DNA of 39,959 nt from Candidatus Binatia bacterium (GTDB lineage Bacteria > Patescibacteriota > Saccharimonadia > Saccharimonadales > UBA10212), in contig DATKKU010000009.1 of NCBI GenBank assembly GCA_035542755.1, forward strand, positions 1 through 39,959, read 5' to 3'. Below are positions 5,983-38,406 of this stretch, piece after piece. The notes below the pieces were generated by a model that worked only from the letters and a program-made list of their open reading frames with translations, was not told where the DNA came from and made no database searches. Numbering within the stretch: position 1 is the first letter of the stretch; each line of letters starts with the position of its first letter. The translations under genes and the position numbers were made by a program.

Positions 5983-7339
5983 CACGCTGACCAAGCAAGT
6001 TGAGGACCTAGAGCCCCAAAACCCAGATGCCGTTACTATCTACACTTGTGGCCCGACTGTTTATGACTATCCGCATATTGGCAACTGGTTTACCTTTATC
6101 CGCTATGACCTGCTGGTCAGGACGCTGAAGGCTAGCGGCCTGCAAACCAAGTGGGTGCTCAACATTACTGATGTTGGGCATTTGGTTAGCGATGCCGATG
6201 AGGGCGAGGACAAGCTGGAAAAGGGTGCTAGACGCGAAGGCAAAACCGCCTGGGAAGTTGCCGAGTTTTATACTGATTATTTTCTAAAGGGCCTGGAGCG
6301 ACTAAACATTACTAAGCCTGATGAGCTGCCAAGAGCGACCGCTCACATAGACGGTCAGATAGATTTTATAAAACAACTTGAGGCCAAGGGCTTTACCTAT
6401 AGAATCAGTGACGGCATTTATTACGACACCAGCAAATTTTCAAAATATGCGAACTTTGCCCAGCTGGACTTAGATGAACAACAAAGTTCAGACCGGGTAG
6501 AACCAAATCCAGAAAAACGTAATCCATCAGACTTTGCGCTTTGGAAATTTAGCCCCAAAGACCATCAACGTGATATGGAATGGGACAGCCCATGGGGTAA
6601 AGGTTTCCCCGGATGGCACATAGAGTGCTCGGCCATGGTTAAAGCCTATTTTGGCGACACCGTGGACATACATTCTGGTGGCATAGACCACGTGCCGGTG
6701 CATCACACCAACGAAATTGCTCAGTCCGAGGCCGTTACTGGCAAACCGCTGGCCAATATTTGGATGCACACCAACCACATTTTGCTCAACGACCAAAAAA
6801 TTGCCAAAAGCGAAGGCAACGGAATTACGTTAGAAGATATTGAAGCTAAGGGTTACGGTTTGCAAGATTTTAGGCTATTGGTTCTGCAATCACACTACCG
6901 CACGCAGTCCACCTTTAGCTGGGAAGTATTGCAAGCCGCTAGCAACAGTCTTAGCAACTTATCTGCATGGGCCGACCTGCGCTTTCAGCCCTTCATCAAC
7001 CCATTACCTGAAGAGCAGGTGGAGGCGGCAAAAAAGACTATCTTAGGGGCCATGGTTGATGACGACATAAATAGCCCCGCTGCCCTTGCCGTGCTAAATG
7101 GGCTAGTAGATGAGGGCCGCCCGAGTTCGGAGCTGCTTTCTTATATAGACTCCTTGCTGGGCACACGGTTTGCAGAAAGTGACGATATTAGCGAATCACA
7201 AAAACAACTAATTAGTGACCGCGAGCAGGCTAGAGAAGCCGGCAATTGGCAAAAGGCCGACGAGCTACGTAAACAACTGGCAGAGCAGGGGATTGAAATC
7301 AACGACACCGAGCACGGGCCGATTTGGTACCGGACTTAG
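5969..7339 (+). CDS. cysS: cysteine--tRNA ligase
   Basis: 456 aa with CGPTVYDYPHIGN (HIGH), WHIECSAM and a KIAKS (KMSKS-like) motif. It overlaps the upstream gene by 14 nt. Confidence 0.95.
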   Translation: MKLYNTLTKQVEDLEPQNPDAVTIYTCGPTVYDYPHIGNWFTFIRYDLLVRTLKASGLQTKWVLNITDVGHLVSDADEGEDKLEKGARREGKTAWEVAEFYTDYFLKGLERLNITKPDELPRATAHIDGQIDFIKQLEAKGFTYRISDGIYYDTSKFSKYANFAQLDLDEQQSSDRVEPNPEKRNPSDFALWKFSPKDHQRDMEWDSPWGKGFPGWHIECSAMVKAYFGDTVDIHSGGIDHVPVHHTNEIAQSEAVTGKPLANIWMHTNHILLNDQKIAKSEGNGITLEDIEAKGYGLQDFRLLVLQSHYRTQSTFSWEVLQAASNSLSNLSAWADLRFQPFINPLPEEQVEAAKKTILGAMVDDDINSPAALAVLNGLVDEGRPSSELLSYIDSLLGTRFAESDDISESQKQLISDREQAREAGNWQKADELRKQLAEQGIEINDTEHGPIWYRT

Positions 7340-8403
7340 GCGTTTTTTAGCCCGCGTTTACTAATTTGGTCTTCTACCAAAATTTTAATGGCGTTGGCTG
7401 TTGGTATGGCAATAATTGCGCCCAGGAAACCGGCAAAACCAATTCCGATAATAGCGGCCATAAACACAATTAGCGGCGATATGTTAGTTAGCTTGGACTG
7501 AATTACCGGCTGGATGGTGTGGCTTTCTATAAAGAAGTAGACAACGAAGTAAATCAGCATTATTAAGGCCAGACTAGCCGAAGTACTTAGGCACACCAGC
7601 ACGACGATAATCGTAGAAATCGGGTTGCCAAATAGCGGAATCAATGCAAAAACCGCCACTATGCCGGCCATAGCTAGGGCGTTGACAGATGAATCGGTTA
7701 GATGCGAGGCAATCTCTAGCGCTGCAAAGGCAAACACCCCGGCGATTATGCCGAGTATTACCTGGCCGTTTACAAAACCAGTTACGCCCCTATACATCTG
7801 ATGGGCCAGGTCTTTGTCGTGGGCCCTTCGCCCGGCAGGCATTAACCCAAAGAATGAGTCCAGCAGTTTTGGACCCTCAACCAGCATCATGAAGGTCATA
7901 ATTACCACCACAATAATAGACACAAAGGCCTCGGCCACCCGCTTGCCGGTGTCAAAAACCGTGCTGCCATAGTTGGCGTAGTTGTTGGCAAAATCTTTGG
8001 CGCCAGTGGTAATTTTATCGTCCAGCTTATAGCGCCGAGCCAGACGGGCGTAGTGAGTATCTTGATTTTGAAAACTATCAACAATTTGCGGAACATCGGA
8101 TATAAATGTCCGGGTTTGGCGAATTAGCGGAGGCGTTACTAGCGCAAAAAACAGGGCAATAAGGGCGATAACCATTAAGTAAGCGGCAGCTGTGGCTCTA
8201 ACCCGGCTTTCTATCTTTAGCCGGCGCGACATAGAGCTAACCACTGGATTAAGCGCCAGGGCCAAAAAGAAAGAAGCGAATATAAGAGTCAACTCGTGCG
8301 TGACCCGGCCAATAAATTTATAAAGCAGTATAAAAACCACAACCCATAAAAAGGTGCGGATAATAGTGCGGTTGGTGATGTTGATGGTTTCTTTACCGCT
8401 CAT
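7336..8403 (-). CDS. AI-2E family transporter (PerM-like permease)
   Basis: 355 aa and polytopic, with the typical AI-2E layout and a C-terminal IPTANAIKILVE-type segment. Confidence 0.75.
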   Translation of the reverse strand: MSGKETINITNRTIIRTFLWVVVFILLYKFIGRVTHELTLIFASFFLALALNPVVSSMSRRLKIESRVRATAAAYLMVIALIALFFALVTPPLIRQTRTFISDVPQIVDSFQNQDTHYARLARRYKLDDKITTGAKDFANNYANYGSTVFDTGKRVAEAFVSIIVVVIMTFMMLVEGPKLLDSFFGLMPAGRRAHDKDLAHQMYRGVTGFVNGQVILGIIAGVFAFAALEIASHLTDSSVNALAMAGIVAVFALIPLFGNPISTIIVVLVCLSTSASLALIMLIYFVVYFFIESHTIQPVIQSKLTNISPLIVFMAAIIGIGFAGFLGAIIAIPTANAIKILVEDQISKRGLKNA

Positions 8404-8412
8404 CGCTTGAGC

Positions 8413-9564
8413 TTAATTATGCCTGTTGCCGCGACGCTTGGCAATTGCCCGTGCATAAAGCGACTCTATTTGTTTGCCAACCACATTTATATCGTAGCGC
8501 TTAACTTCTGATGCCTGCCAGTTGTGTAGTTTTTGCCTGGGCGCAGCATTACTAAGTAAATCAATTAGCAATTTTGCTAATTCGCTTTTACTGCCGGGGT
8601 CAAACAGTAGCTGCGGCTTTTGATCCAGTACGCTGGCATAGCCCGGATTATTGCCGCCAATAACCACTCCCGAGCCAGCCGCCATGGCTTCTATCAATAC
8701 GATGCCAAAACTTTCGCCGCCCAAAGATGGAAAGCAGGCCACTGTACCACTGGCCAAAAAGTCCGGCCGATGCCTGTTATCAATAAAGCCTTTAAACTCA
8801 ATATTTCTGCCAAGGCCTAGTTTGCTTACAAGCTTGGCAAGTTCGGCCTGTTGCGGCCCCTTGCCGCCGATTAGCAGCCTTGCATCGGGTATGGTGTCTA
8901 CGACCAGCCGAAAGGCCTCAATCAGCTGCCGGCAGCCCTTGCGGCTGACTAATCTGCCCAGAAACACGACTTGGCCCGGTTTATTTTTGATGCCGGATTT
9001 AAAGCTGGCTACGTCAATGGTGTTGGGTATAACAGTGGTGTCTAGCCCAAAGACGGCTTTGGCAAAATTAGCAGCCGGCTGGCTAACGCTAACCACTTCG
9101 TCAAATTTTGATAAGCCGCCAAGATAAAGCGGTTTTAGCAACTTAGAGCCGTGTTTGGCGAGCCCATTCATCGGATAAACATGAAAAGTACCGACAATGG
9201 CAGTAGAACCGTCTGCGGCATTAACGACCTTTTGTGCCATAAACGGCGAGTGCGGCATCTGAACGTGCAGTACGTCAAGACCAAGCTCGCTAACTACTTC
9301 ACGGATAATTGCCCCGTTAGCCGGCAGGGGAATAGACATCCGGTTGCCGTTAAACGATACTTTTTGGTTACGCGACAGGCTATATACCTGGCCGTCAGCC
9401 CAACTAGTCATAACAGTTTGGCCCACCAGATAGCTGACGCTGTGGCCTTGCTGGCTCAGCCACTGGCCAATAATTTTTACCTGCCCGGCGACTCCATCCT
9501 GGCTGTCCAGCGTGTCATCAAAAACCAGGCCTATTTTAAGATGCTTTGGCGTGGATTTTTTCAT
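8413..9564 (-). CDS. glycosyltransferase family 4 (GT-B, Glycos_transf_1)
   Basis: GGESFGIVLIEAMAAG (EX7E region). The listed ORF extends to 9624, but ATG at 9564 (MKKSTPKHLKIGLVFDD) avoids most of the overlap with the upstream paralog. Confidence 0.8.
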   Translation of the reverse strand: MKKSTPKHLKIGLVFDDTLDSQDGVAGQVKIIGQWLSQQGHSVSYLVGQTVMTSWADGQVYSLSRNQKVSFNGNRMSIPLPANGAIIREVVSELGLDVLHVQMPHSPFMAQKVVNAADGSTAIVGTFHVYPMNGLAKHGSKLLKPLYLGGLSKFDEVVSVSQPAANFAKAVFGLDTTVIPNTIDVASFKSGIKNKPGQVVFLGRLVSRKGCRQLIEAFRLVVDTIPDARLLIGGKGPQQAELAKLVSKLGLGRNIEFKGFIDNRHRPDFLASGTVACFPSLGGESFGIVLIEAMAAGSGVVIGGNNPGYASVLDQKPQLLFDPGSKSELAKLLIDLLSNAAPRQKLHNWQASEVKRYDINVVGKQIESLYARAIAKRRGNRHN

Positions 9565-10702
9565 GCCTGGCAATAGCTTTCTCGTATGCTTGCTCGTACA
9601 TCTGGGCGACTTTTGGCCAGTCAAACTGCTCGACGTATTTCTCGGCCCAATCTATCCAAATTTTTCTAAGCTCGGGCTGGTACAAGAACACCTCCAGCCG
9701 CCGGCTAAAGTCAATAATGTCCTGGGGGTTTACCAGCGACAGCGCGCCAAGTCCGGTCATAACGCTTTGATAACCAAGATTGTCGCCAGCTACCGTCGGC
9801 AGGCCGGCGGCCATGGCTTCTAGAAGCACTATGCCAAAACTTTCGCCGCGGTGTGACGGGTAGCAGGCGATATCGGCCTTGTGCAAATGACGTATCTTGT
9901 CGGCTTCAGAAATTCGGCCCAAAAAGGTCACCCTTGGAATCTCGTTATCTTTAACGTACTGGCGCAGCTTATCCTCGTCCGGCCCGGCGCCGGCAATTAG
10001 CAGCTGAACGTCATCTTTCTTGCTGGTCAGCTCATGATAGGCTTTGATTAGATACTTAACACCTTTACGGCCTTCTAATCTGCCAACGTAGAGTATGGTT
10101 TTTTGTTTGGGATTTTTAACGGCGCTGGCGGGCCTTGTCCTATACTTGCTAAGATCTATGCCGTTAGGTACATAGCGAATGCTTTTGGCCAGACGGTGGT
10201 CGGGTGCCTTATTAAGAAAAACTGCCGCCGGCGCCGGCGATACGGCTGTAATTATGTCTAATTTATCACCTATGCCCTTTCCGTAGGTAAAGAAGACGTT
10301 TACCAATGATTTGGCGGCCACCGAGTCAACTAGGTTGGCATGAAAAGTACCAACGTGGGCAGTGTCCGACAAAGCTAAAATTTGCCTAGCCAGGATAGGC
10401 GCCCAAGGCTCGTGAAAGTTAATAACATCAAACTTTTCGCTATTTAAAACTCTGGATATCTCCTCGGCCTCAATGTCGTAAGTCCAGGTGCCGTCGGTGG
10501 CCAGGCCGGCGTTAAACTTAGCCGATGTGCCTAGAAATATATAGTCTTTGGGCAGCTTACCCTTAAAACCAGCGGGTCGGGGTGTAATAATTTTTACCTC
10601 GTGACCGCGCTTGACCAACTCATCCCGAAGGTGCGTAACAACCTCGCTGACACCGCCGGAAAGTTCTAACATGTTATACGGACAAACCAGGGCTATTTTC
10701 AT
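9536..10702 (-). CDS. glycosyltransferase family 4 (GT-B, Glycos_transf_1)
   Basis: 388 aa with MKIALVCPY... at the N-terminus and RGESFGIVLLEAMAAGLP. It is a tandem paralog of the downstream gene. Confidence 0.8.
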   Translation of the reverse strand: MKIALVCPYNMLELSGGVSEVVTHLRDELVKRGHEVKIITPRPAGFKGKLPKDYIFLGTSAKFNAGLATDGTWTYDIEAEEISRVLNSEKFDVINFHEPWAPILARQILALSDTAHVGTFHANLVDSVAAKSLVNVFFTYGKGIGDKLDIITAVSPAPAAVFLNKAPDHRLAKSIRYVPNGIDLSKYRTRPASAVKNPKQKTILYVGRLEGRKGVKYLIKAYHELTSKKDDVQLLIAGAGPDEDKLRQYVKDNEIPRVTFLGRISEADKIRHLHKADIACYPSHRGESFGIVLLEAMAAGLPTVAGDNLGYQSVMTGLGALSLVNPQDIIDFSRRLEVFLYQPELRKIWIDWAEKYVEQFDWPKVAQMYEQAYEKAIARHEKIHAKAS

Positions 10703-10721
10703 GCTATTAGTATACCGTTTT

Positions 10722-11660
10722 TCATGCCGACTTTTCGTTTAGCAATCGGCGCAGCCCGGGCGGCACCATAACCGACATTTCTTTTTTTTCGGCTATAACG
10801 CTGGGTACATGGGTCTTAGAGCGCGCCAAAAACTGCCGATATTGCGAAAAGATTTGGCGCATGCGGTTTTCTACACTGATATTGTTAAGATAGTGGTCAT
10901 TCTCAGACACAATATGGACAACTGGTATATTTATGGACTTTTTACAGTTATTTAAGCGGAGCAGCTCAATGGTGGTTAACCAATGAGTACGCACATCGTT
11001 GGCCTGCCAAAGTTTAACCTCAAAGTCTAAGCTGCGGTCAAATTCTTCCGGCGTGACCTCTATAAACCGGTGCTTGGAGTGGGGCATAGTACCAGTCAAA
11101 AACTTTATAACCGGTCTGTTCAGAAAGCCGTATCGGATTACAAAAGCCGTTGGTCGGGCTGCAAAAAAACGCGATAATCCCACATAGAAATATTTGCTGG
11201 TTCGGCTAAAAACAATGTCATCACCGTGCATCAGGCCAACCGAGCCAATTAGCATATCTACTTTTTTAGTTAGTTCTGGGTAGCGCTGCAGCATCCTGGT
11301 GGTGACCGCGAAGCCAAAGGATATAGCGTAAATTCTGACTTTTTTAGTCTTGTAGCGAAGTTTTATAAAGGCTGCCAGATAGTCGGCCAGGGCGTCTAGG
11401 TTGGGCTTTGTGCCAATTTTGGCGAAACTTTCCATGCCGCCAAAACCCGGCAGGTCGGGCATACAGACATTGCCATATTTATCCAGATTCTCAACTAGCC
11501 CCCACCAACGCTCCAGCATGGCGTGGTGACCATATATAACTAGTATTTCACGCCGGCGGTTGCGCTTGGTGGTAGATGGAACATACATCATCCTCCCCTG
11601 TAATCCGTTCATGTTCAGGGGCACTATATAGTCACCAGGTTGTCTGGAACCTTTCGGCAT
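10722..11660 (-). CDS. alpha/beta hydrolase fold protein
   Basis: PDLPGFGG and a nucleophile-elbow-like AISFG. The listed ORF starts at TTG 11672. ATG 11660 is preferred because a minus-strand TATAAT (11677-11672) sits just upstream. Confidence 0.6.
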   Translation of the reverse strand: MPKGSRQPGDYIVPLNMNGLQGRMMYVPSTTKRNRRREILVIYGHHAMLERWWGLVENLDKYGNVCMPDLPGFGGMESFAKIGTKPNLDALADYLAAFIKLRYKTKKVRIYAISFGFAVTTRMLQRYPELTKKVDMLIGSVGLMHGDDIVFSRTSKYFYVGLSRFFAARPTAFVIRYGFLNRPVIKFLTGTMPHSKHRFIEVTPEEFDRSLDFEVKLWQANDVRTHWLTTIELLRLNNCKKSINIPVVHIVSENDHYLNNISVENRMRQIFSQYRQFLARSKTHVPSVIAEKKEMSVMVPPGLRRLLNEKSA

Positions 11661-11755
11661 ACTTGGCACCAATTATACGATAATTACAGATATCGGTAAA
11701 ACGTCGATATAACTTGCGTTATCTCTATAATTGTGGTATTATTTGTTCAAAGATT

Positions 11756-11785
11756 TGGCCTCCGCTGGCCAGGTCTCGTTTTTTT
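11756..11785 (+). promoter_or_regulatory. small hairpin plus T7 tract in the putative 5' leader of the island operon (attenuator/terminator-like)
   Basis: TGGCC-tccgct-GGCCA, then ggtctcg, then ttttttt. It lies downstream of two plus-strand -10-like boxes (TATAAT 11726-11731, TGgTATTAT 11734-11742). Confidence 0.3.
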
Positions 11786-11837
11786 GACAATCTAGTTAAA
11801 GATTAAGTTCAAATTAGCGTTCGGTTTTGTTAGGCAT

Positions 11838-11884
11838 CTAGCTCACGCTCAAGCTGTTCAAAAGACGGTTTAAGTGTGAGCTAG
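11838..11884. promoter_or_regulatory. 9-bp perfect inverted repeat (ctagctcac ... gtgagctag) just upstream of the island operon SD; candidate operator or leader hairpin
   Basis: Arms at 11838-11846 and 11876-11884 with a 29-nt spacer. SD aaggag (11898-11903) and ATG 11912 follow. Confidence 0.4.
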
Positions 11885-11911
11885 ACCAATCCTCAACAAG
11901 GAGATCCGCTA

Positions 11912-13378
11912 ATGCGTGGACGCCGCCGGTACTACACGGTGCGGGCATCCCGGTGGCTGGACGACCACTACTGGGGGCCTTTACTCGCGTACGCGAGTTG
12001 CCTGGTGGTGCTTCTCGGACTGGCCTGTGCTTTCTACGGCGCTGCCAAAGGAGTGCACAACAGCCACATCCACAGGCGCCAGCAATTCGGTCAGCTGATC
12101 TACTCGGTCGGGGAGTCAGCTCATGACAACTCGCCCAGAGCGATTGAGCTCCGCAAGCGCGCCGCAAGCAGGCTCGTGGAGCTAGACCTTCGTTACATCC
12201 AGATCTACGGCAAAAACAGTACGTACTTGCCGCTCAGCAACCACCGTCTGAAGCAGGTGCAGCAGGTAGCCAAGAATGGTCGCGCCATCAACGTGGGCGA
12301 TCTCAACGCTTGGTCCTTTAGTGCCTTTCTGGCGGCGATGGGGCGCTGGTACGTGCTGTTCACGATTTTCTCAGGTTTCGGACTATTCTTCCTGGTGAAC
12401 TTCCTGTTTCAACGGGACGACGGTCATCACAGCCGTTACCTGGCGGAGCTCCCCTGGAACAAACCCTGGCCTTGGGTCGTAACGTTGACTCTTGGGCCTG
12501 TGGGCTGGCTCGGCATGCCGTGCAGTTACCTGATGCTCGACTCCGAGGAGGAGGTTGGAGAAGAACTGCCCGTAGTCGAGCACGAAGAAGGCCTGTATGC
12601 GGACGCCGACGATCCCGCACTAGACCCTCAGGTTCTGCGCAGCTACGTCAGCGCTCCGGCTTCTGCTAGGGAGCTGTACATAAACCTGAGCATAGAGGCA
12701 CTTAGGTTGATTCGTGAAAGACGTCGGGTTCGTCTCGAGGAGAAGATTGACGAGACCCGGGATGAGATTCAGCACCACGCCGACATGGTTCGGATGTGCA
12801 ACACAGAGCTCAACGAGCTGGTGTCAAAGCGCCGAGCTCTGGACGAAGTTGTCGACGAACTCGAAAACTTCGGACCGGAGAAGCGGGCAGAGGAATTCGA
12901 AAGAATTCTCAGCCTGCCGGGCGTAATTGCGGTGCAGGTGGTCAACAGCCGCATCCGCCTAATCGTCCGCGCCAGCATCAGTTACGACGACGCTCTCTAC
13001 GATCTGGGAGATTGGCGGATGGACTTCGGTCCTGACACCACTCACATCGATGCTTACGAGCTTCGGTCCGGCATCAGACCAGAGTGGGATGGCAGCTATC
13101 CGGCCTACCGGCTTGGACGCGGCAACTTCTGCTTTGGCAACCGGGAGGATGAGATCAACCAGCACCTGAGCAAAGGCCAGTACCTGGAGGCTATGGCGCT
13201 TGCAACAGAGTGCCTAAACTCCGTCAACCGTACGGATCAAGAACGGATCCCATATGCCTTCAAGGAGGTTGCAGTCGATGCAGAACAAGAATCAGGAGAC
13301 GGTAATCAGACCGATGGTTCGGATCCCCCTGCACCTGTGGCAGAGGATGATGACCTACGTCATGCTCTGCCCGGTTGA
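11912..13378 (+). CDS. multi-TM, coiled-coil protein with a C-terminal Cys-containing alpha/beta domain (candidate non-canonical E2-like component or effector)
   Basis: 488 aa with SD aaggag 8 nt upstream. Hydrophobic segments lie at about aa 22-44, 132-166 and 185-208, followed by an acidic linker. A heptad-rich helix spans about aa 252-330. The C-terminal domain (aa 331-450) follows a helix, four strands, GNFCFG (Cys407, nt 13130-13132), helix pattern. Confidence 0.75.
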   Translation: MRGRRRYYTVRASRWLDDHYWGPLLAYASCLVVLLGLACAFYGAAKGVHNSHIHRRQQFGQLIYSVGESAHDNSPRAIELRKRAASRLVELDLRYIQIYGKNSTYLPLSNHRLKQVQQVAKNGRAINVGDLNAWSFSAFLAAMGRWYVLFTIFSGFGLFFLVNFLFQRDDGHHSRYLAELPWNKPWPWVVTLTLGPVGWLGMPCSYLMLDSEEEVGEELPVVEHEEGLYADADDPALDPQVLRSYVSAPASARELYINLSIEALRLIRERRRVRLEEKIDETRDEIQHHADMVRMCNTELNELVSKRRALDEVVDELENFGPEKRAEEFERILSLPGVIAVQVVNSRIRLIVRASISYDDALYDLGDWRMDFGPDTTHIDAYELRSGIRPEWDGSYPAYRLGRGNFCFGNREDEINQHLSKGQYLEAMALATECLNSVNRTDQERIPYAFKEVAVDAEQESGDGNQTDGSDPPAPVAEDDDLRHALPG

Positions 13379-13898
13379 GATCAACGGGTTCGGCATCGTC
13401 AACTTCGACAACCCGCAGGTCATCTTGCTAGAGGATGTGTTCATCCTCGATCAGTTGGCCACTCCGGGGAGCGTTGAAACCGACCCGCTGGCTCTCGGCC
13501 GTTACATGCACCAGTTGCACCTGGACGGCGGCGACTCCAGCAAGATCAAGTTCCAGTGGCATAGCCACGTCCAGATGCCGCCCTTCTTCTCGGCAGTCGA
13601 CAAGGACAACATCGAGAATTGGCCGGGGGACTGGCTGGTCAGCCTGGTCCTGAACCAACGCGGCGAGTTTGAGTGCCGCTACGACAGCCTGCGTCCACTA
13701 CGCTTCAGTCAAGTGCTGGAGCCAGTCATCGACGTAACGGTGACCGCCGCCGTCGCTGACGAACTGGCAAAGGAGGTGGCCGGCAAGGTCAAGCAGCCCC
13801 GGTGGGGAGGCCTTGGCACCAGGTCGCTGACGGACGGCAGCGTCGATCCAGACGCCTGGACCCCGACGACTCCGCAGTTCCTCAACCTGGCGGGCTAG
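13278..13898 (+). CDS. JAMM/MPN+ (JAB) metallopeptidase
   Basis: Conserved Glu in CPVEINGFG and an exact HxHx7Sx2D motif (HSHVQMPPFFSAVD, nt 13560-13601). The start is set at ATG 13278 because a strong SD aaggagg (13262-13268) lies 9 nt upstream. The listed ORF begins at 13254. Confidence 0.85.
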   Translation: MQNKNQETVIRPMVRIPLHLWQRMMTYVMLCPVEINGFGIVNFDNPQVILLEDVFILDQLATPGSVETDPLALGRYMHQLHLDGGDSSKIKFQWHSHVQMPPFFSAVDKDNIENWPGDWLVSLVLNQRGEFECRYDSLRPLRFSQVLEPVIDVTVTAAVADELAKEVAGKVKQPRWGGLGTRSLTDGSVDPDAWTPTTPQFLNLAG

Positions 13899-13902
13899 TC
13901 CG

Positions 13903-14571
13903 ATGCACGTAGACTACTCCGGCCAGACCGATATCTTCGACCCCAAGGCCTTTTCCTGGCCGGTGAATGTCATCGGCGTCGGGGGCATCGGCAGCGCAGT
14001 CATACTGCCGCTGGTGAAGCTAGGTCTTGCAAGTTCGCTCCATCTGTGGGACCCTGATTTCGTTGAGTTTCACAATGTGCCGGCCCAGCTGATCTATCGG
14101 GCCAGCGACGTGGGGAGAGCCAAGGTGGAAGCGGCCGCGGACGTTTTGCGGCCGTACCTTTCGCCTTCGTGCGAGCTGGTTCTCCACCAGGAACTTGTCG
14201 GCCCGCAGACACCACTCTCCGGAGTGGTCATCGGCGCCGTCGACAACATGAAAGCACGTTCCGATATATGGGAGGGGGTGAAATTCAACCCCGACATCCC
14301 TCTCTATCTCGACGGCCGAATCGGCGGCGAGCAGATGCAGCTACTTACGCTGAATCCGTTCGACATCGACGCCATCGAGTACTACGAGAAGACATGGTTG
14401 TTCCCGGATGAAGAAGGAGCCGAGCTGCCCTGCGCAGCCCGGACCGTGATTCATCCACCCGTCGTGTTGGCTGGGCATATCATCGCCCAGTTAACGCGAT
14501 TCGCACGCGATCTTCCGACCCGGCAGTACATCGACGTGCACGTTGGGACCACGCAGTTCATCGTGGTCTAG
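13903..14571 (+). CDS. minimal ThiF/MoeB/E1-like adenylyltransferase
   Basis: 222 aa with Rossmann GVGGIG (aa 25-30), WDPDFVEFHNVPAQ, GRAKVEAA and AVDNMKAR motifs. Its only cysteines are Cys90 and Cys177, and there is no CxxC pair. The start lies 4 nt after the JAB stop. Confidence 0.85.
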   Translation: MHVDYSGQTDIFDPKAFSWPVNVIGVGGIGSAVILPLVKLGLASSLHLWDPDFVEFHNVPAQLIYRASDVGRAKVEAAADVLRPYLSPSCELVLHQELVGPQTPLSGVVIGAVDNMKARSDIWEGVKFNPDIPLYLDGRIGGEQMQLLTLNPFDIDAIEYYEKTWLFPDEEGAELPCAARTVIHPPVVLAGHIIAQLTRFARDLPTRQYIDVHVGTTQFIVV

Positions 14572-14615
14572 GCGTGCCAACGATGCCACCCCGAAAGAAA
14601 AGGAGATACCGTACC

Positions 14616-14852
14616 ATGACCGAAGTCGCAGCAGAGACGACCCCGCAGTGGGTCCACGTCGCCATCCTCGGTGGCGACACCCAGCAGCTCGATTTCACCG
14701 CAGGCATGACCGTCGGGCAGGCGCTCGAGGCCGCTGGCCTCACCCGCCAGCGCGGCACCATGGTCCAGGTCAACGGCGTACCCGCCGATGACGACCAGGA
14801 GCTCGAGCCGAACTCCGCGGTCCAGATCACCACCCAGGTCAAGAACGGCTAG
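14616..14852 (+). CDS. ubiquitin-like beta-grasp protein (ThiS/MoaD/Ubl-like), C-terminal Gly
   Basis: 78 aa from ATG 14616 (SD aaaggag 14599-14605). It has a ThiS/MoaD-like pattern (MVQVNGVPA...LEPNSAVQITTQVKNG-stop). The listed ORF starts at GTG 14574, which would add a basic 14-aa extension. Confidence 0.75.
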   Translation: MTEVAAETTPQWVHVAILGGDTQQLDFTAGMTVGQALEAAGLTRQRGTMVQVNGVPADDDQELEPNSAVQITTQVKNG

Positions 14853-14874: not shown

Positions 14875-14898
14875 CCGTTAGCTTTTCGGAGCTAACGG
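14875..14898 (+). terminator. hairpin 1 downstream of the Ubl gene (8 bp stem)
   Basis: CCGTTAGC-ttttcgga-GCTAACGG read directly. No U-tract. Confidence 0.35.
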
Positions 14899-14904
14899 TG
14901 GGTC

Positions 14905-14953
14905 GAACACCGTGGGCGAGAGATTGAAATACATCTCCTCGCCCACGGTGTTC
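14905..14953. terminator. hairpin 2 at the island right edge (16 bp perfect stem, 17 nt loop)
   Basis: GAACACCGTGGGCGAG ... CTCGCCCACGGTGTTC. It lies between the convergent Ubl and purM genes and has no clear U-tract. Confidence 0.45.
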
Positions 14954-15047
14954 CCCGACAACACATTTGCCTAAGCTTAAAAATTTAAACTTAGACAAGT
15001 ATGCTGTTGGAGTAACTTACTGCCTGTGAGGTCTACAGCGAATCTAT

Positions 15048-35446: not shown

Positions 35447-36598
35447 ATGCCAAAGCCCGACTCCAGCAAGAAAGCTTTTGATATTCATAAGACTTTGCCT
35501 ACCCACCGGGCGGCCAAAACACACCAGCCCACCGGCAGAAATTCTCGCCTGGAAAAAGTTGCCGAGATTACCCCGGAAGAAAAACGCCGCGGTTTTAGCT
35601 TCAAGCGGGCGCTGGCCTCCGTCTTAGTAATTCTTTTTTTGTTTGTAATTGTTGTTGGCGTTTGGGACGCCCGCAACATCTCCTCGGCTACCAGCAAACT
35701 GTTTGGTACGGACAATGTCTTTAGCCTGCTTAGCCCAACCAGTTTAAAAAAGGATAATAACGGCCGGGTCAACGTTCTGATAGTTGGCTACTCGGCAGAT
35801 GATCCTGGCCATAGTGGCGCTAATTTAACGGATTCTATTTTGCTGCTTTCCATGAACCCATCCAATAAAACCGGCTATATGCTAAGCATCCCGCGAGATT
35901 TATATGTGGAGATTCCGGGCTTTGGCCACGCCAAAATTAACGAGGCTTACCAAGACGGCGGCATGAGCCTGCTGGAACAGGTGGTTACTAGCGATTTTGG
36001 TGTCCAGATTGGTTATTACGTAATAGTTGATTATACGGCTGTAAAACAGACGGTAGACGCTCTGGGCGGCATTACCGTCAATATTCAAAGTACCGACCCG
36101 CGCGGCCTTTACGACCCCAACATCAACACTCAGGACGGTGGCCCGCTGCTACTGCCTAACGGCCCGCAGAAATTGAACGGCCAAACGGCCTTAAACCTCA
36201 CGCGGGCCCGCGGCGACGCCTACAACTCCTACGGTTTTGCCCAGTCAGACTTTGACCGCACCCAGCATCAGCGCCAAATACTGACGGCCATCAAAGACAA
36301 GCTAAGTTGGAAATTGGTGCTCAACCCCAGTAAAAACAGCCAGATTTTAAACGCCGTAGCCAGCAACGTAAAAACCGACGTTGCTATAACCCAAGCCCGG
36401 CCGCTGTTTGGCACGTTTAACTCCATTCCTTCGGCTCAACTGCTGTCGCTTAGCCTGCGCAGTCTAAGTGGCACTAATTACTTAGTCAGCTATACAACTT
36501 CCAGCGGCCAAAGTGCGCTGGTCCCATCAGCCGGTATTGACGATTACAGCCAAATCCAGGCCGCCCTGGCTGATATCGGCAACCAAAAGACCCCTTAG
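35447..36598 (+). CDS. LytR-CpsA-Psr (LCP) family protein
   Basis: N-terminal TM helix, NVLIVGYSADD...SDSILLLSMNP and RDLYVEIPGFGHAKINEAY motifs. Confidence 0.85.
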   Translation: MPKPDSSKKAFDIHKTLPTHRAAKTHQPTGRNSRLEKVAEITPEEKRRGFSFKRALASVLVILFLFVIVVGVWDARNISSATSKLFGTDNVFSLLSPTSLKKDNNGRVNVLIVGYSADDPGHSGANLTDSILLLSMNPSNKTGYMLSIPRDLYVEIPGFGHAKINEAYQDGGMSLLEQVVTSDFGVQIGYYVIVDYTAVKQTVDALGGITVNIQSTDPRGLYDPNINTQDGGPLLLPNGPQKLNGQTALNLTRARGDAYNSYGFAQSDFDRTQHQRQILTAIKDKLSWKLVLNPSKNSQILNAVASNVKTDVAITQARPLFGTFNSIPSAQLLSLSLRSLSGTNYLVSYTTSSGQSALVPSAGIDDYSQIQAALADIGNQKTP

Positions 36599-36623
36599 TT
36601 TACTTTACTAATACTTATATTAG

Positions 36624-36632
36624 TGGTATAAT
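36624..36632 (+). promoter_or_regulatory. extended -10 promoter (TGgTATAAT) for the high-GC orphan gene
   Basis: AT-rich host-like promoter, followed by SD aaggagg (36655-36661) and GTG 36669. Confidence 0.5.
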
Positions 36633-36668
36633 TTATTTTACACAGCCCTTTTACAAGGAGGTTCAGTA

Positions 36669-37400
36669 GTGACCGTTCAGATCGAGCCGTACAGGCGCGA
36701 CGTGGTTCTGCAGACCGTGATGGACGACGAAGCTGTTCGCAGGCACGAGCTTGTGGAGCAGCTGGGCTTCAACCCAGAGCTTCAGCTCGTCGACGAGCAC
36801 GGCGACGAGGCAGCCAGCTTCTACCCGGAGCTGGCCGGCTTCGAGTTGAGCATCTGGACGCTCTTTCACCAGAGCGTCTACAGCAAGAACAAGGAGGAGT
36901 GGTCGGGGTATCACTTCGACCGCATTCCCACCGAAGTGCTGTCGCATATCGGTTTCGCTCAGGAGTTCGGCGGCTTTGACGACATCGAGCTGTGGACTCC
37001 CGAGAGGAAGGTCGAGCTGGATCCGATGGCCGTCGGCGTTGTCGGACATCGTCTGGGACACAGCGAGCTTCGCCACAGCCTCGGCCAGAACTTCGCGTTC
37101 AACCGCAACGCCCGCTTCTTCCCAATCGTCCGCTGGGGCGAGAGCCTGGAGGCGTTCGACCGCATCAAGGAACGTGCTCTTCTCAACACCATTCAGCTGA
37201 CCCACGGCTTCCGCAACAAGGTCGTTCCGCTGGGTGTGCTCAACTACATCGAGGAGCAGCTTCATAGCGGCGTCCGCAGCCCGTTCTGGATTGACAAGGC
37301 TTCGCGCCTTGCAGGCAAGCACTGCGGCGAGCGCCGCGTCTGGGTGTCGCCGCGCGAGGGAGTCGCTGCAAACGTCTGCGGCGTCTGCGGCGCACACTGA
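36669..37400 (+). CDS. hypothetical protein on a high-GC islet, with a C-terminal H/C cluster
   Basis: 243 aa with GTG start and a strong SD. The plus frame is chosen over the mirror minus ORF because of the SD, promoter and downstream terminators. The C-terminus has HC(218-219)...CxxC(237-240)..H243. Confidence 0.65.
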   Translation: MTVQIEPYRRDVVLQTVMDDEAVRRHELVEQLGFNPELQLVDEHGDEAASFYPELAGFELSIWTLFHQSVYSKNKEEWSGYHFDRIPTEVLSHIGFAQEFGGFDDIELWTPERKVELDPMAVGVVGHRLGHSELRHSLGQNFAFNRNARFFPIVRWGESLEAFDRIKERALLNTIQLTHGFRNKVVPLGVLNYIEEQLHSGVRSPFWIDKASRLAGKHCGERRVWVSPREGVAANVCGVCGAH

Positions 37401-37415
37401 ATCACTCCGCTGTCA

Positions 37416-37484
37416 GGGCAGGTAACCCGATTTTTCGGTTGCCTGCCCGGCGGTCTGGGAGCACCCCAGACCGCCGCCTTTTTT
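37416..37484 (+). terminator. tandem GC-rich hairpins ending in a T6 tract (rho-independent terminator)
   Basis: GGGCAGGTAACC(c)G...CGGTTGCCTGCCC, then an 11-bp perfect stem GGCGGTCTGGG-agcac-CCCAGACCGCC followed by gcctttttt. Confidence 0.8.
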
Positions 37485-37528
37485 CAATCTTTCGTTATCA
37501 AGCCCTATCAACTTCTTAGTAACAGAGT

Positions 37529-37534
37529 TATAAT
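37529..37534 (+). promoter_or_regulatory. -10 box (gTTATAAT)
   Basis: It lies upstream of SD aggag (37546-37550) and GTG 37558. Confidence 0.4.
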
Positions 37535-37557
37535 GTCCGTGATTTAGGAGTTAGCCG

Positions 37558-38406
37558 GTGTCATCTATCCCTCAGCCCTCGCGCGAAACATATGCTTGGA
37601 CCTACGACCCTTCCAATTGGCAGGGTGTTGATATATTGCAGGGCGAAAATGAGAACCTGCCGCCCGCCATGGCGCCAAGAGCCAAAGTACGAGAATACTC
37701 CCGCGCCCGAATTAACCTTCGTGCCGGGCTAAATTTGGCGCTGCTAAGCGACCATGTAGAAATGGTCCGCTACGTAGAGGGGACTACCTTTGACCCGCCG
37801 CAAGACCAATTACCTGACGGCACGGTCGTGACACTGGAAAGTGCCCGGCTAATCTATGAGGCCTCTGGCAACCAGCAGGACGAGCAACAGGCCGAAGACG
37901 ATGAACCTCAGGTAGCAGTTTTTAAGGACTACCCCATAACGCGCCCGCACCTAAAGTATTGGCTGGATTATCAAACGCTGGAGCCGGAGCAACAGCTTGG
38001 TCTGCTGGGCACCGAGATAATCGGTATTTCGGACCCCCAAATAGCCTATATACACCAGGTCCATTGGGGAGTCCTTAGAAGTTCTAAAAACGGCTCGCGC
38101 GCGGTCCAGTTATTTAATTTTCAAAAACCACACCTGGCGGAGTTCGGCGGTTTGCCGCTTGTTAAACTTGGGTCTGTTAGTAAAGAAGACGTTGAGGCGA
38201 TGTGGGCTATTGAACTACCTATAGAAATCGGTCAGGTAAAAAACTTGGGGACGCTTGCCCTAGATGGCTTTTATACTGCGGCCATGACTAAAGTTCTTGG
38301 CATTGACGTTATACATATGACCGAGCCCAAGGATAACGGCGGCCGCCGCGGGCCGCGCCTACCCCACAAAAAAAGCCTGCCTAAGTTTTTGCCCAGCCGC
38401 AGCTAG
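37558..38406 (+). CDS. hypothetical protein (282 aa)
   Basis: Long ORF with an SD and host-like GC. No family was recognised. Confidence 0.6.
   Translation: MSSIPQPSRETYAWTYDPSNWQGVDILQGENENLPPAMAPRAKVREYSRARINLRAGLNLALLSDHVEMVRYVEGTTFDPPQDQLPDGTVVTLESARLIYEASGNQQDEQQAEDDEPQVAVFKDYPITRPHLKYWLDYQTLEPEQQLGLLGTEIIGISDPQIAYIHQVHWGVLRSSKNGSRAVQLFNFQKPHLAEFGGLPLVKLGSVSKEDVEAMWAIELPIEIGQVKNLGTLALDGFYTAAMTKVLGIDVIHMTEPKDNGGRRGPRLPHKKSLPKFLPSRS

Follow-up and report, generated by a model that had tools for sequence, protein, structure and literature searches.

Introduction

Three branches of bacterial conjugation by ubiquitin-like proteins (Ubls) stand on experimental ground: type II CBASS (cyclic-oligonucleotide-based antiphage signalling system), Bil and Bub. 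BilABCD is an anti-phage ubiquitination-like system (Chambers et al., 2024; Hor et al., 2024; both cited in PMC11601596), and as summarised in that source it is an accessory operon of four components (free Ubl, E2, JAB deubiquitinase and E1) without an E3, the E2 being thought to choose the targets. Bub (6E/DUF6527) works through tyrosine and serine oxyesters, without catalytic cysteines (PMC11601596). Here we describe a compact cassette of four genes in a 39,959-nucleotide stretch of DNA from Candidatus Binatia bacterium (contig DATKKU010000009.1 of assembly GCA_035542755.1, placed by GTDB in the Saccharimonadales; the whole stretch is called the window below). It encodes a Ubl, a minimal E1-like adenylyltransferase, a JAB/JAMM metallopeptidase and, as gene 1, a large protein with a C-terminal domain built around one invariant cysteine (the Cys domain). 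A first-pass annotation, made from the letters alone, had stated that this layout does not match known systems, and indeed the cassette falls outside Bil, type II CBASS, Bub, ThiF/ThiS, MoeB/MoaD and SAMP alike. Our best reading is an undescribed Ubl-conjugation cassette, in which the carrier is an unclassified, mostly membrane-anchored Cys domain. If this is true, it adds a fourth branch to the three named above.

Organisation and conservation of the cassette

The genes lie head to tail in the order gene 1, JAB, E1, Ubl (Table 1). The ORF coordinates agree with the first-pass description of four co-directional genes, the first two overlapping by 101 nt and the others separated by 4 and 44 nt, and with its placing of Shine-Dalgarno (SD) sequences upstream of genes 1, 2 and 4 and of none before the E1. 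Gene 1 has GGAGA 7 nt upstream of its ATG. Among the candidate JAB starts, 13278 aligns best with the orthologues and is preceded by an SD (AAGGAGG, 13262-13268); this is the start that creates the overlap with gene 1. The E1 begins 4 nt past the JAB stop. The Ubl start, 44 nt past the E1 stop, follows the SD AAGGAGA at 14599-14605, and an alternative GTG at 14574 has none. The overlap is due to the last ~35 residues of gene 1 (13279-13378), an acidic, low-complexity tail which is not conserved in orthologues; in the orthologous loci the end of gene 1 abuts the start of JAB. Since all four ORFs have homologues in the same order elsewhere, they represent real genes and not chance ORFs.

Table 1. 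Features of the cassette and its borders (positions in the window; aa, amino acids; AF2, AlphaFold2; MFE, minimum free energy)
Feature	Coordinates	Strand	Remarks
Gene 1	11912..13378	+	488 aa: membrane anchor, coiled coil, C-terminal Cys domain (E2-like candidate)
Gene 1, membrane region, aa 22-207	11975..12532	+	Hydropathy across 10 orthologues, AF2 helices, invariant residues
Gene 1, long single helix, aa 249-317 (69 residues)	12656..12862	+	AF2; probable coiled coil
Gene 1, C-terminal alpha/beta domain, aa 318-456	12863..13279	+	Candidate catalytic Cys407 = TGC 13130-13132; YPxY 8-11 residues before
JAB/JAMM metallopeptidase	13278..13898	+	206 aa from ATG 13278; ORF opens 13254; JAMM motif 13560-13601
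Minimal E1-like adenylyltransferase	13903..14571	+	222 aa; GxGGxG, Asp114/Arg119, Cys177 (14431-14433)
Ubl, beta-grasp	14616..14852	+	78 aa from ATG 14616; C-terminus Asn-Gly, then stop
Sigma-70-like promoter candidate	11704..11731	+	TCGATA-16-TATAAT, ~180 nt upstream of gene 1; consensus match only
Two strong stem-loops directly 3' of Ubl stop	14875..14957	+	MFE -59 kcal/mol, z = -7.5 vs shuffles

A search of 5.8 billion clustered proteins gave 10 close homologues of gene 1, of which the named one is from Saccharimonadales. The loci of four of them (P0007-P0010) each contain gene 1, a JAB-like protein of ~200 aa, a ThiF-family protein of ~220 aa and a gene for 80-90 aa, in unrelated flanks, and three further loci in metagenome-assembled genomes (MAGs) of Saccharibacteria have the same gene order. 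A genome scan, which was run with the close-family alignment only as the wide alignment had no sufficiently conserved stretch, gave 4 Saccharibacteria loci. Overall L001, L002-4, L005/6, L007, L010, L014, L015, L016/17 and L018 (our designations of the loci) all have Cys-domain protein, JAB, E1 and Ubl in this order. The co-conservation of the four genes, on which the first-pass annotation depended, thus holds in at least 10 independent loci, whose flanks are unrelated.

Several loci carry variants of this arrangement. In L019 the first three genes are kept and the product of the fourth is a Ubl that continues into a long C-terminal extension, from which it would have to be released by proteolysis, presumably through the JAB. 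This protein (L019:2849-4219, in a cassette of the tandem type) has 456 aa, with an N-terminal beta-grasp domain that ends in ...KITDG and is followed by ~380 residues without a Pfam match. A three-gene form without JAB (L008:5001-6621 and L009:600-2220) consists of a Cys-domain protein, a ThiF-family gene and a Ubl of 80-85 aa, and the Cys-domain protein here is a soluble one of 250 aa, made up of coiled coil and Cys domain. On the L002 contig the cassette is followed, directly downstream, by a second, divergent one (L002:10062-13488) with an altered gene order: a tandem-domain protein (Cys-less domain first, Cys-bearing domain second), then a Ubl of 75 aa, a JAB of 198 aa and a ThiF-family gene. 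As distant loci including the JAB-less form keep these partners, the conserved core is the linkage of Cys-domain protein, E1 and Ubl. Among sequences carrying organism names, the cassette has been found so far only in Patescibacteria.

The E1, JAB and Ubl proteins

The E1 belongs to the ThiF/E1 family (Pfam ThiF, E = 5.3e-17, 62 bits against a cut-off of 28) and has the conserved residues of E1-like adenylyltransferases, G25/G27/G28/G30, D114, R119 and C177. When a five-sequence E1 profile was compared with PDB, the matches were UBA3, the NEDD8 E1 (1.5e-13), UBA7 (1.4e-12), ThiF (1.2e-11) and MoeB (3.4e-6). The E1s for NEDD8, ISG15 and ubiquitin thus score at or slightly above the level of ThiF and well above MoeB, which by sequence would put our protein nearer to the conjugating E1s. 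The invariant C177 aligns with C184 of E. coli ThiF, the Cys of the crossover loop, and in the same alignment both CxxC zinc motifs of ThiF are without a counterpart. Homologues form 97 clusters, all of ~220 aa and 50-79% identical; the named ones are from Saccharimonadales, Saccharibacteria or Uhrbacteria, and their records label them ThiF, ThiS-adenylyltransferase or MoeB. Against the NCBIfam models the E1 scores 54.5 bits for ThiF (cut-off 275; E = 1e-14), 30-40 bits for MoeB (cut-offs 266-376) and 37 bits for UbaA (cut-off 450).

Small ThiF-like relatives of the E1 are also encoded by phages, namely Flavobacterium phage FpV4 (L011, NC_041872.1 63878-64564) and others like it, phages that infect Bacteroides, and Xanthomonas jumbo phages (phrog_15670, 1e-18). 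Their annotation is that of thiamine biosynthesis proteins, and they are surrounded by hypothetical proteins; the neighbourhood in FpV4 proved uninformative.

The JAB protein is a JAMM/MPN+ peptidase, with the Glu, HxH, Ser and Asp of the Glu...HxHx7SxxD motif invariant in 11 orthologues. Its profile matches best in PDB to Rpn11 (4.7e-7) and to JAMM1 of Pyrococcus furiosus, the archaeal desampylase (2.8e-6), and the match to Pfam Prok-JAB, at 1.7e-3, is below the cut-off. The Ubl profile matches P. furiosus PF1061 (7e-6) and SAMP2 (1.3e-5), with ThiS (0.08) and MoaD (0.13) much weaker; the NCBIfam scores of the Ubl are 14 bits for ThiS (cut-off 80) and 17.5 bits for SAMP2 (cut-off 70). The only invariant feature of the Ubl is its C-terminus, Asn-Gly followed directly by the stop, in 13/13 loci, and accordingly a C-terminal Gly-Gly is absent at all 13. 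Because the Ubl is thus made with its Gly already exposed, the JAB is most simply a deconjugase. All three proteins, E1, Ubl and JAB, look more like parts of a conjugation apparatus than like members of a sulfur-carrier pathway. The motifs listed in the first-pass annotation (GNFCFG with C407 in gene 1, the JAB Glu with HSHx7Sx2D, GVGGIG, DNMKAR and C177 in the E1 and VKNG-stop in the Ubl) are all found in the translated genes.

The Cys domain of gene 1

The C-terminal domain had been credited with a single Cys. This is incorrect, since it contains a second one, C434, which is nearly invariant among close relatives of gene 1. For the wider family, a profile built on the C-terminal domain (130 residues) was run against 1.84 billion representative proteins and gave 450 representative clusters at E<=1e-3, 271 of them at E<=1e-10; a word-indexed protein search with a 55-sequence alignment of the domain returned 6 proteins. 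In this alignment of 55 diverse domain sequences Cys407 is the sole invariant residue, accompanied by near-invariant Y-D-x-G-D-W, an Arg, P-x-Y and F-C-F-G. We then surveyed the 152 best representatives of the 450 clusters (143 single-domain and 9 tandem proteins): the equivalent of Cys407 is kept in every single domain (143/143) and in the first domain of every tandem protein (9/9), and it is lost from the second domain in 7/9. Such pairing of a Cys-bearing with a Cys-less domain recalls, by analogy, the pairs of an E2 with a ubiquitin E2 variant (UEV).

The domain is outside every described E2 family. Gene 1 has no Pfam match to UQ_con, Prok-E2 (A-E) or RWD at E<=1, the UBC/Prok-E2 models of Pfam give none at E<=0.1 in 10 diverse relatives and none at E<=10 in the 55 domain sequences, and no Pfam family covers the Cys domain in any of the proteins scanned (gene 1, the 10 relatives and the 55 sequences). 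One tandem family member has a sub-threshold match to the Knl1 RWD model. Among PDB sequences the domain profile found no E2 and gave only chance matches, to an exosome subunit (E=0.2) and to NDUFS4 (E ~0.8), and the full-length AF2 model of gene 1, with a predicted local distance difference test score (pLDDT) of 70, produced only noise in Foldseek. A search of the BFVD viral structures gave no meaningful match, and no description of the family was found by full-text literature searches.

Modelled alone from the 55-sequence alignment, the domain is predicted by AF2 with high confidence (pLDDT 95.9, predicted template modelling score 0.89). Its elements follow one another as a1, b1-b4, a loop of ~25 residues containing YPxY and then the Cys, and a2-a3-a4. 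This is the UBC order, and Cys407 sits in the loop between b4 and the next helix. A conserved Pro, present in 97% of the sequences, precedes the Cys by 10 residues; in UbcH5 the Pro of the His-Pro-Asn (HPN) motif is 9 residues before Cys85. Among the top 50 PDB matches of this model in Foldseek about 10 have the UBC/RWD superfold (L. major E2, UbcH7, UbcH8, CdnG-E2, Atg10, the GCN2 RWD, Csm1 twice and CENP-O twice), an enrichment of individually non-significant matches. We therefore consider a diverged UBC/RWD-like fold likely, though not established, for the Cys domain.

Membrane region and coiled coil

Gene 1 was annotated at first pass as a multi-transmembrane, coiled-coil protein, and this character is confirmed by three hydrophobic segments and the long helix 249-317. 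By hydropathy the segments are at about aa 22-42, 146-166 and 187-207 and are kept across the orthologues. Between the first and the second there is a helical loop of ~100 aa. The third, a weaker segment, has a kink at the invariant G195-P196, and in several orthologues it is flanked by basic residues on both sides. A conserved motif, Y245-x-S-A-P-x-x-A-x-x-x-Y256, precedes the long helix, and a Pfam scan of this stalk region returned only weak matches of the coiled-coil type. Since the N-terminus is Arg-rich, and since the cytoplasm is where E1, Ubl and JAB have to act, we infer a topology in which the N-terminus is inside and is followed by the first transmembrane helix, the ~100-aa loop outside, the second transmembrane helix, a re-entrant hairpin, an acidic linker, the coiled coil and a cytoplasmic Cys domain. 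The membrane anchor is the prevailing architecture but not the only one: of the 152 best representatives, 112 have the membrane form, 22 lack a hydrophobic segment, 9 are soluble tandem proteins and 9 are fragments or have a single segment.

Genomic context

The cassette has a GC content of 0.598, compared with 0.485 and 0.498 in its 5-kb flanks, which bears out the GC-atypical island reported at first pass, and in five loci the cassette is 5-11 points above its flanks. On one side in the window it is flanked by an AI-2E transporter, two GT4 glycosyltransferases and an alpha/beta hydrolase, and on the other by PurM, PurE, PurK and a beta-lactamase-like gene. The block of hydrolase, two glycosyltransferases and AI-2E transporter (window 7336-11672) is syntenic, with 49-63% identity, in 18 metagenome loci (L021-L038). 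Upstream of the hydrolase these loci differ from one another and purMEK is not kept; the cassette was missing upstream of the hydrolase in 10/10 related metagenome loci with enough flank, and an exact empty site was not found. With its GC offset and patchy presence the cassette behaves as an accessory, horizontally moving unit. The first-pass annotation had placed it in a small genome, which is not readable from the window and has as its sole basis the relatives being Saccharibacteria MAGs.

No sulfur-transfer partner gene is adjacent, as had been noted: ThiG, MoaE, CysM and siderophore genes are absent from the flanks in the window and from at least 10 other loci. L001 and L002 have generic PLD and Fic genes nearby, and L010 a HepT/MNT pair. 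A defence-island context was considered and set aside, as PADLOC gave only generic PLD (DrmC-like), Fic and RmuC matches in some loci, and these are not counted as evidence for defence.

At the 5' side of gene 1, a terminator-like hairpin with a T7 run (11751-11776, + strand) lies between the promoter candidate and the gene, and a 21-nt imperfect inverted repeat is found at 11837-11885. The elements in 11704-11885 could be a regulatory leader or an unrelated terminator. At the 3' side, the stem-loops after the Ubl contain a perfect 16-nt inverted repeat (14905-14920/14938-14953) with no T-run after it, coincide with the right edge of the GC-rich segment and are the probable end of the operon. 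A second GC-rich patch (0.58-0.59) is present at window 36500-38400, where the ORFs are without annotation: those at 36663-37397 (-) and 37558-38406 (+) have no Pfam match, and the first of them overlaps an ORF at 36669-37400 (+), leaving the coding strand of this pair ambiguous.

Proposed mechanism and alternatives

From the observed families, catalytic residues and gene linkage we infer the chemistry, topology and biological role as follows, and consider it reasonably, if not strongly, probable that the cassette is a self-contained Ubl-conjugation module of an undescribed type, with a diverged, mostly membrane-anchored E2-like enzyme. The minimal E1 would adenylate Gly78 of the Ubl, as suggested by its ThiF/E1 fold and the conserved residues of the ATP site, and would then form a thioester on the crossover-loop Cys177, to which the invariance of this residue and its alignment with ThiF C184 point. 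Next, the Ubl would pass to Cys407 in the diverged UBC/RWD-like domain of gene 1, at the end of the coiled-coil stalk; we propose this because the Cys is universally conserved, the topology is UBC-like and the linkage with E1 and Ubl is strict. The final acceptors of the Ubl would be lysines, either in target proteins or in gene 1 itself. As no E3 is encoded, the E2-like protein would choose the targets, and as its E2-like domain is held at the membrane with the Cys domain predicted to be cytoplasmic, conjugation would occur at the inner membrane face. The JAB would remove the Ubl again, maturation cleavage being unnecessary with Gly exposed from the start. By analogy with Bil and type II CBASS, and given the patchy, island-like distribution, the cassette probably has an accessory conflict or defence role, which is the least supported step of the proposal. 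A more far-reaching version appears possible but somewhat doubtful to us: the Cys domain would be an unrecognised branch of E2/UBC or an independent thioester carrier, in a Patescibacteria-centred system at the cytoplasmic membrane, whose loop would couple an event outside (phage adsorption, host-cell contact) to tagging inside, the tandem forms representing built-in E2/pseudo-E2 pairs.

A number of observations weigh against the conjugation module. The first-pass annotation had put a membrane/coiled-coil Cys protein at the place of a canonical E2; a conserved Cys-bearing domain is indeed found there, but its E2 fold is statistically unsupported, since the best Foldseek match of the Cys-domain model in PDB has an E-value of 0.25 and the best TM-score is 0.43 (UbcH8), neither significant, and hhalign against four eukaryotic E2s gave a probability of 3%, with a1-b3 aligned in register. 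The HPN motif is absent and is replaced by Y-P-x-Y-(R), with no His or Asn. With an N-in start and all three hydrophobic segments crossing the membrane, the Cys domain would end up extracellular, away from ATP and E1, so the cytoplasmic placement relies on the third segment being re-entrant. As for a role in defence, the neighbours are mostly housekeeping genes (SecA, RmuC, MIP, ClpB, RNase Y, purMEK and glycosyltransferases), and neither tblastn against phage and plasmid records nor a pattern scan of the IMG/VR viral contigs found the Cys domain, so there is no direct link to phage conflict.

An alternative is a scheme without an E2, similar to sampylation, in which the E1 alone activates and attaches the Ubl. 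Gene 1 would then be the main substrate, or an effector or sensor switched by Ubl and JAB, analogous to CD-NTase priming in type II CBASS, and Cys407 would be an effector site, a redox switch or a metal ligand. Such a scheme agrees with the nearest relatives of the Ubl and JAB, SAMP2 and JAMM1, which form a system working without E2, with the lack of a significant E2 match for the Cys domain, with a membrane region that could be a pore-forming or sensing effector, and with the operon encoding no separate effector or target. We nevertheless regard it as rather unlikely, since an invariant Cys in a sheet-helix loop, after a Pro motif at E2-like spacing, is the signature of a thioester carrier. 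Furthermore, the soluble and tandem forms dispense with the membrane region and yet keep the linkage to E1 and Ubl, so the membrane part is not the conserved function, and the tandem proteins pair a Cys-bearing with a Cys-less domain in the manner of E2/UEV pairs.

A sulfur carrier seems improbable to us. Here the Ubl would be a ThiS/MoaD-type thiocarboxylate for some thio-cofactor or thionucleoside, Cys407 a persulfide relay and the JAB an enzyme like Mec/QbsD, and this explanation has on its side the matches of the E1 to ThiF and MoeB models (Pfam 5e-17; NCBIfam ThiF 1e-14), the public records that call it a ThiF or ThiS adenylyltransferase, C177 as the residue of the ThiF-ThiS acyl disulfide and the weak similarity of the Ubl to ThiS and MoaD. 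However, no ThiG, ThiH, MoaE, CysM, rhodanese, cysteine desulfurase or siderophore genes were found in at least 10 neighbourhoods, the NCBIfam scores are far under the equivalog cut-offs (e.g. 54 vs 275 bits), the Ubl ends in Asn-Gly and not Gly-Gly and the E1 is without zinc CxxC motifs. A Ubl that needs no trimming would also leave a Mec/QbsD-like JAB without a job, and the cassette is accessory and GC-atypical. That the locus is a decaying, non-functional remnant, as the unconserved 35-residue tail of gene 1 running 101 nt into the JAB gene might suggest, we consider very improbable: the four ORFs are intact, SD sequences and tight spacing are preserved, the catalytic residues are all conserved (JAMM motif, ATP site and C177 of the E1, the Gly of the Ubl and C407) and the E1 is 50-79% identical across its 97 clusters.

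Returning to the conjugation module with gene 1 as the E2-like carrier, its consequences go beyond this locus. The carrier protein escapes current profiles, having no Pfam model and no significant sequence or structure match in PDB. Hundreds of diverse proteins make up the Cys-domain family, every one of them annotated as hypothetical, and the partner E1 is routinely given the wrong label of a thiamine or molybdopterin enzyme. The hosts, Saccharibacteria and other Patescibacteria, are reduced-genome episymbionts with a poorly known defence and regulatory repertoire. Should the Cys domain prove to be a genuine relative of E2s, it would broaden the sequence space known for the fold and provide a natural membrane-tethered E2, dimerised by a coiled coil; otherwise it would be a Ubl partner of a new kind.

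Comparison with known systems

In architecture, gene 1 has parallels among eukaryotic proteins. Csm1, Knl1 and CENP-O have a coiled-coil stalk which ends in a UBC/RWD-type domain and is paired with a second such domain, and RWD domains lack a catalytic Cys. Ubc6/UBE2J are membrane-held E2s, Ubc6 being a canonical UBC domain with a tail anchor at the C-terminus. With the kinetochore RWD proteins and Ubc6/UBE2J alike we see an architectural parallel only, with weak matches in the case of RWD; homology is not demonstrated.

Compared with the ThiF-ThiS and MoeB-MoaD pairs, the cassette has the same Rossmann adenylation fold in the E1, a Cys that corresponds to C184 of ThiF and, as partner, a beta-grasp protein ending in Gly. 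It differs from them in having no acceptor enzymes nearby, no zinc motifs and an Asn-Gly end, in the addition of the JAB and the Cys-domain partner and in its accessory distribution. With Bub, the activity of which had escaped sequence searches on their own (PMC11601596), it shares the character of a diverged bacterial operon of E1, E2-like and Ubl genes. Here, in contrast to Bub, invariant Cys residues are kept in the E1 and in the E2-like protein, the fusions are different and no protein of the cassette has a Pfam match to the DUF6527 protease.

Type II CBASS has a similar E1 adenylation domain and a JAB peptidase that reverses conjugation. In PADLOC the cassette matches only with the Rossmann part of its E1, best to the E1-E2 (Cap2-type) models (6e-10) and then to BilD (2.1e-5 over residues 23-122); gene 1 and the Ubl have no match, the JAB has only a generic one (0.031), and the models of BilA, BilB and BilC find no match. 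However, Cap2 is a fusion of E1 and E2, whereas our E1 is a separate protein of 222 aa, and the 'Ubl' conjugated in type II CBASS is the C-terminus of the CD-NTase. No CD-NTase or effector genes are present in the neighbourhoods examined.

A set of four components in an accessory operon without an E3 is common to our cassette and Bil as described in PMC11601596. BilB is a recognisable soluble E2, whereas here its place would be taken by an unclassified Cys domain on a coiled coil, which is usually membrane-anchored. The E1 of 222 aa, against ~450 aa in Bil, matches BilD weakly and in part, and the cassette is without a helical protein of the CEHH type. Archaeal sampylation (UbaA-SAMP-JAMM1) is close in other respects: the Ubl profile is nearest to SAMP2/PF1061, the JAB is near to P. 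furiosus JAMM1, both similarities being genuine though remote, and the E1 is likewise a small single-domain protein with a crossover-loop Cys. Yet the SAMPs end in Gly-Gly and their system is also a housekeeping sulfur carrier, the NCBIfam scores for SAMP2 and UbaA are far below the cut-offs, and sampylation has no E2-like partner, whereas in our cassette a conserved fourth partner with a Cys of catalytic type is always present. On these comparisons the cassette would work most like Bil and archaeal sampylation.

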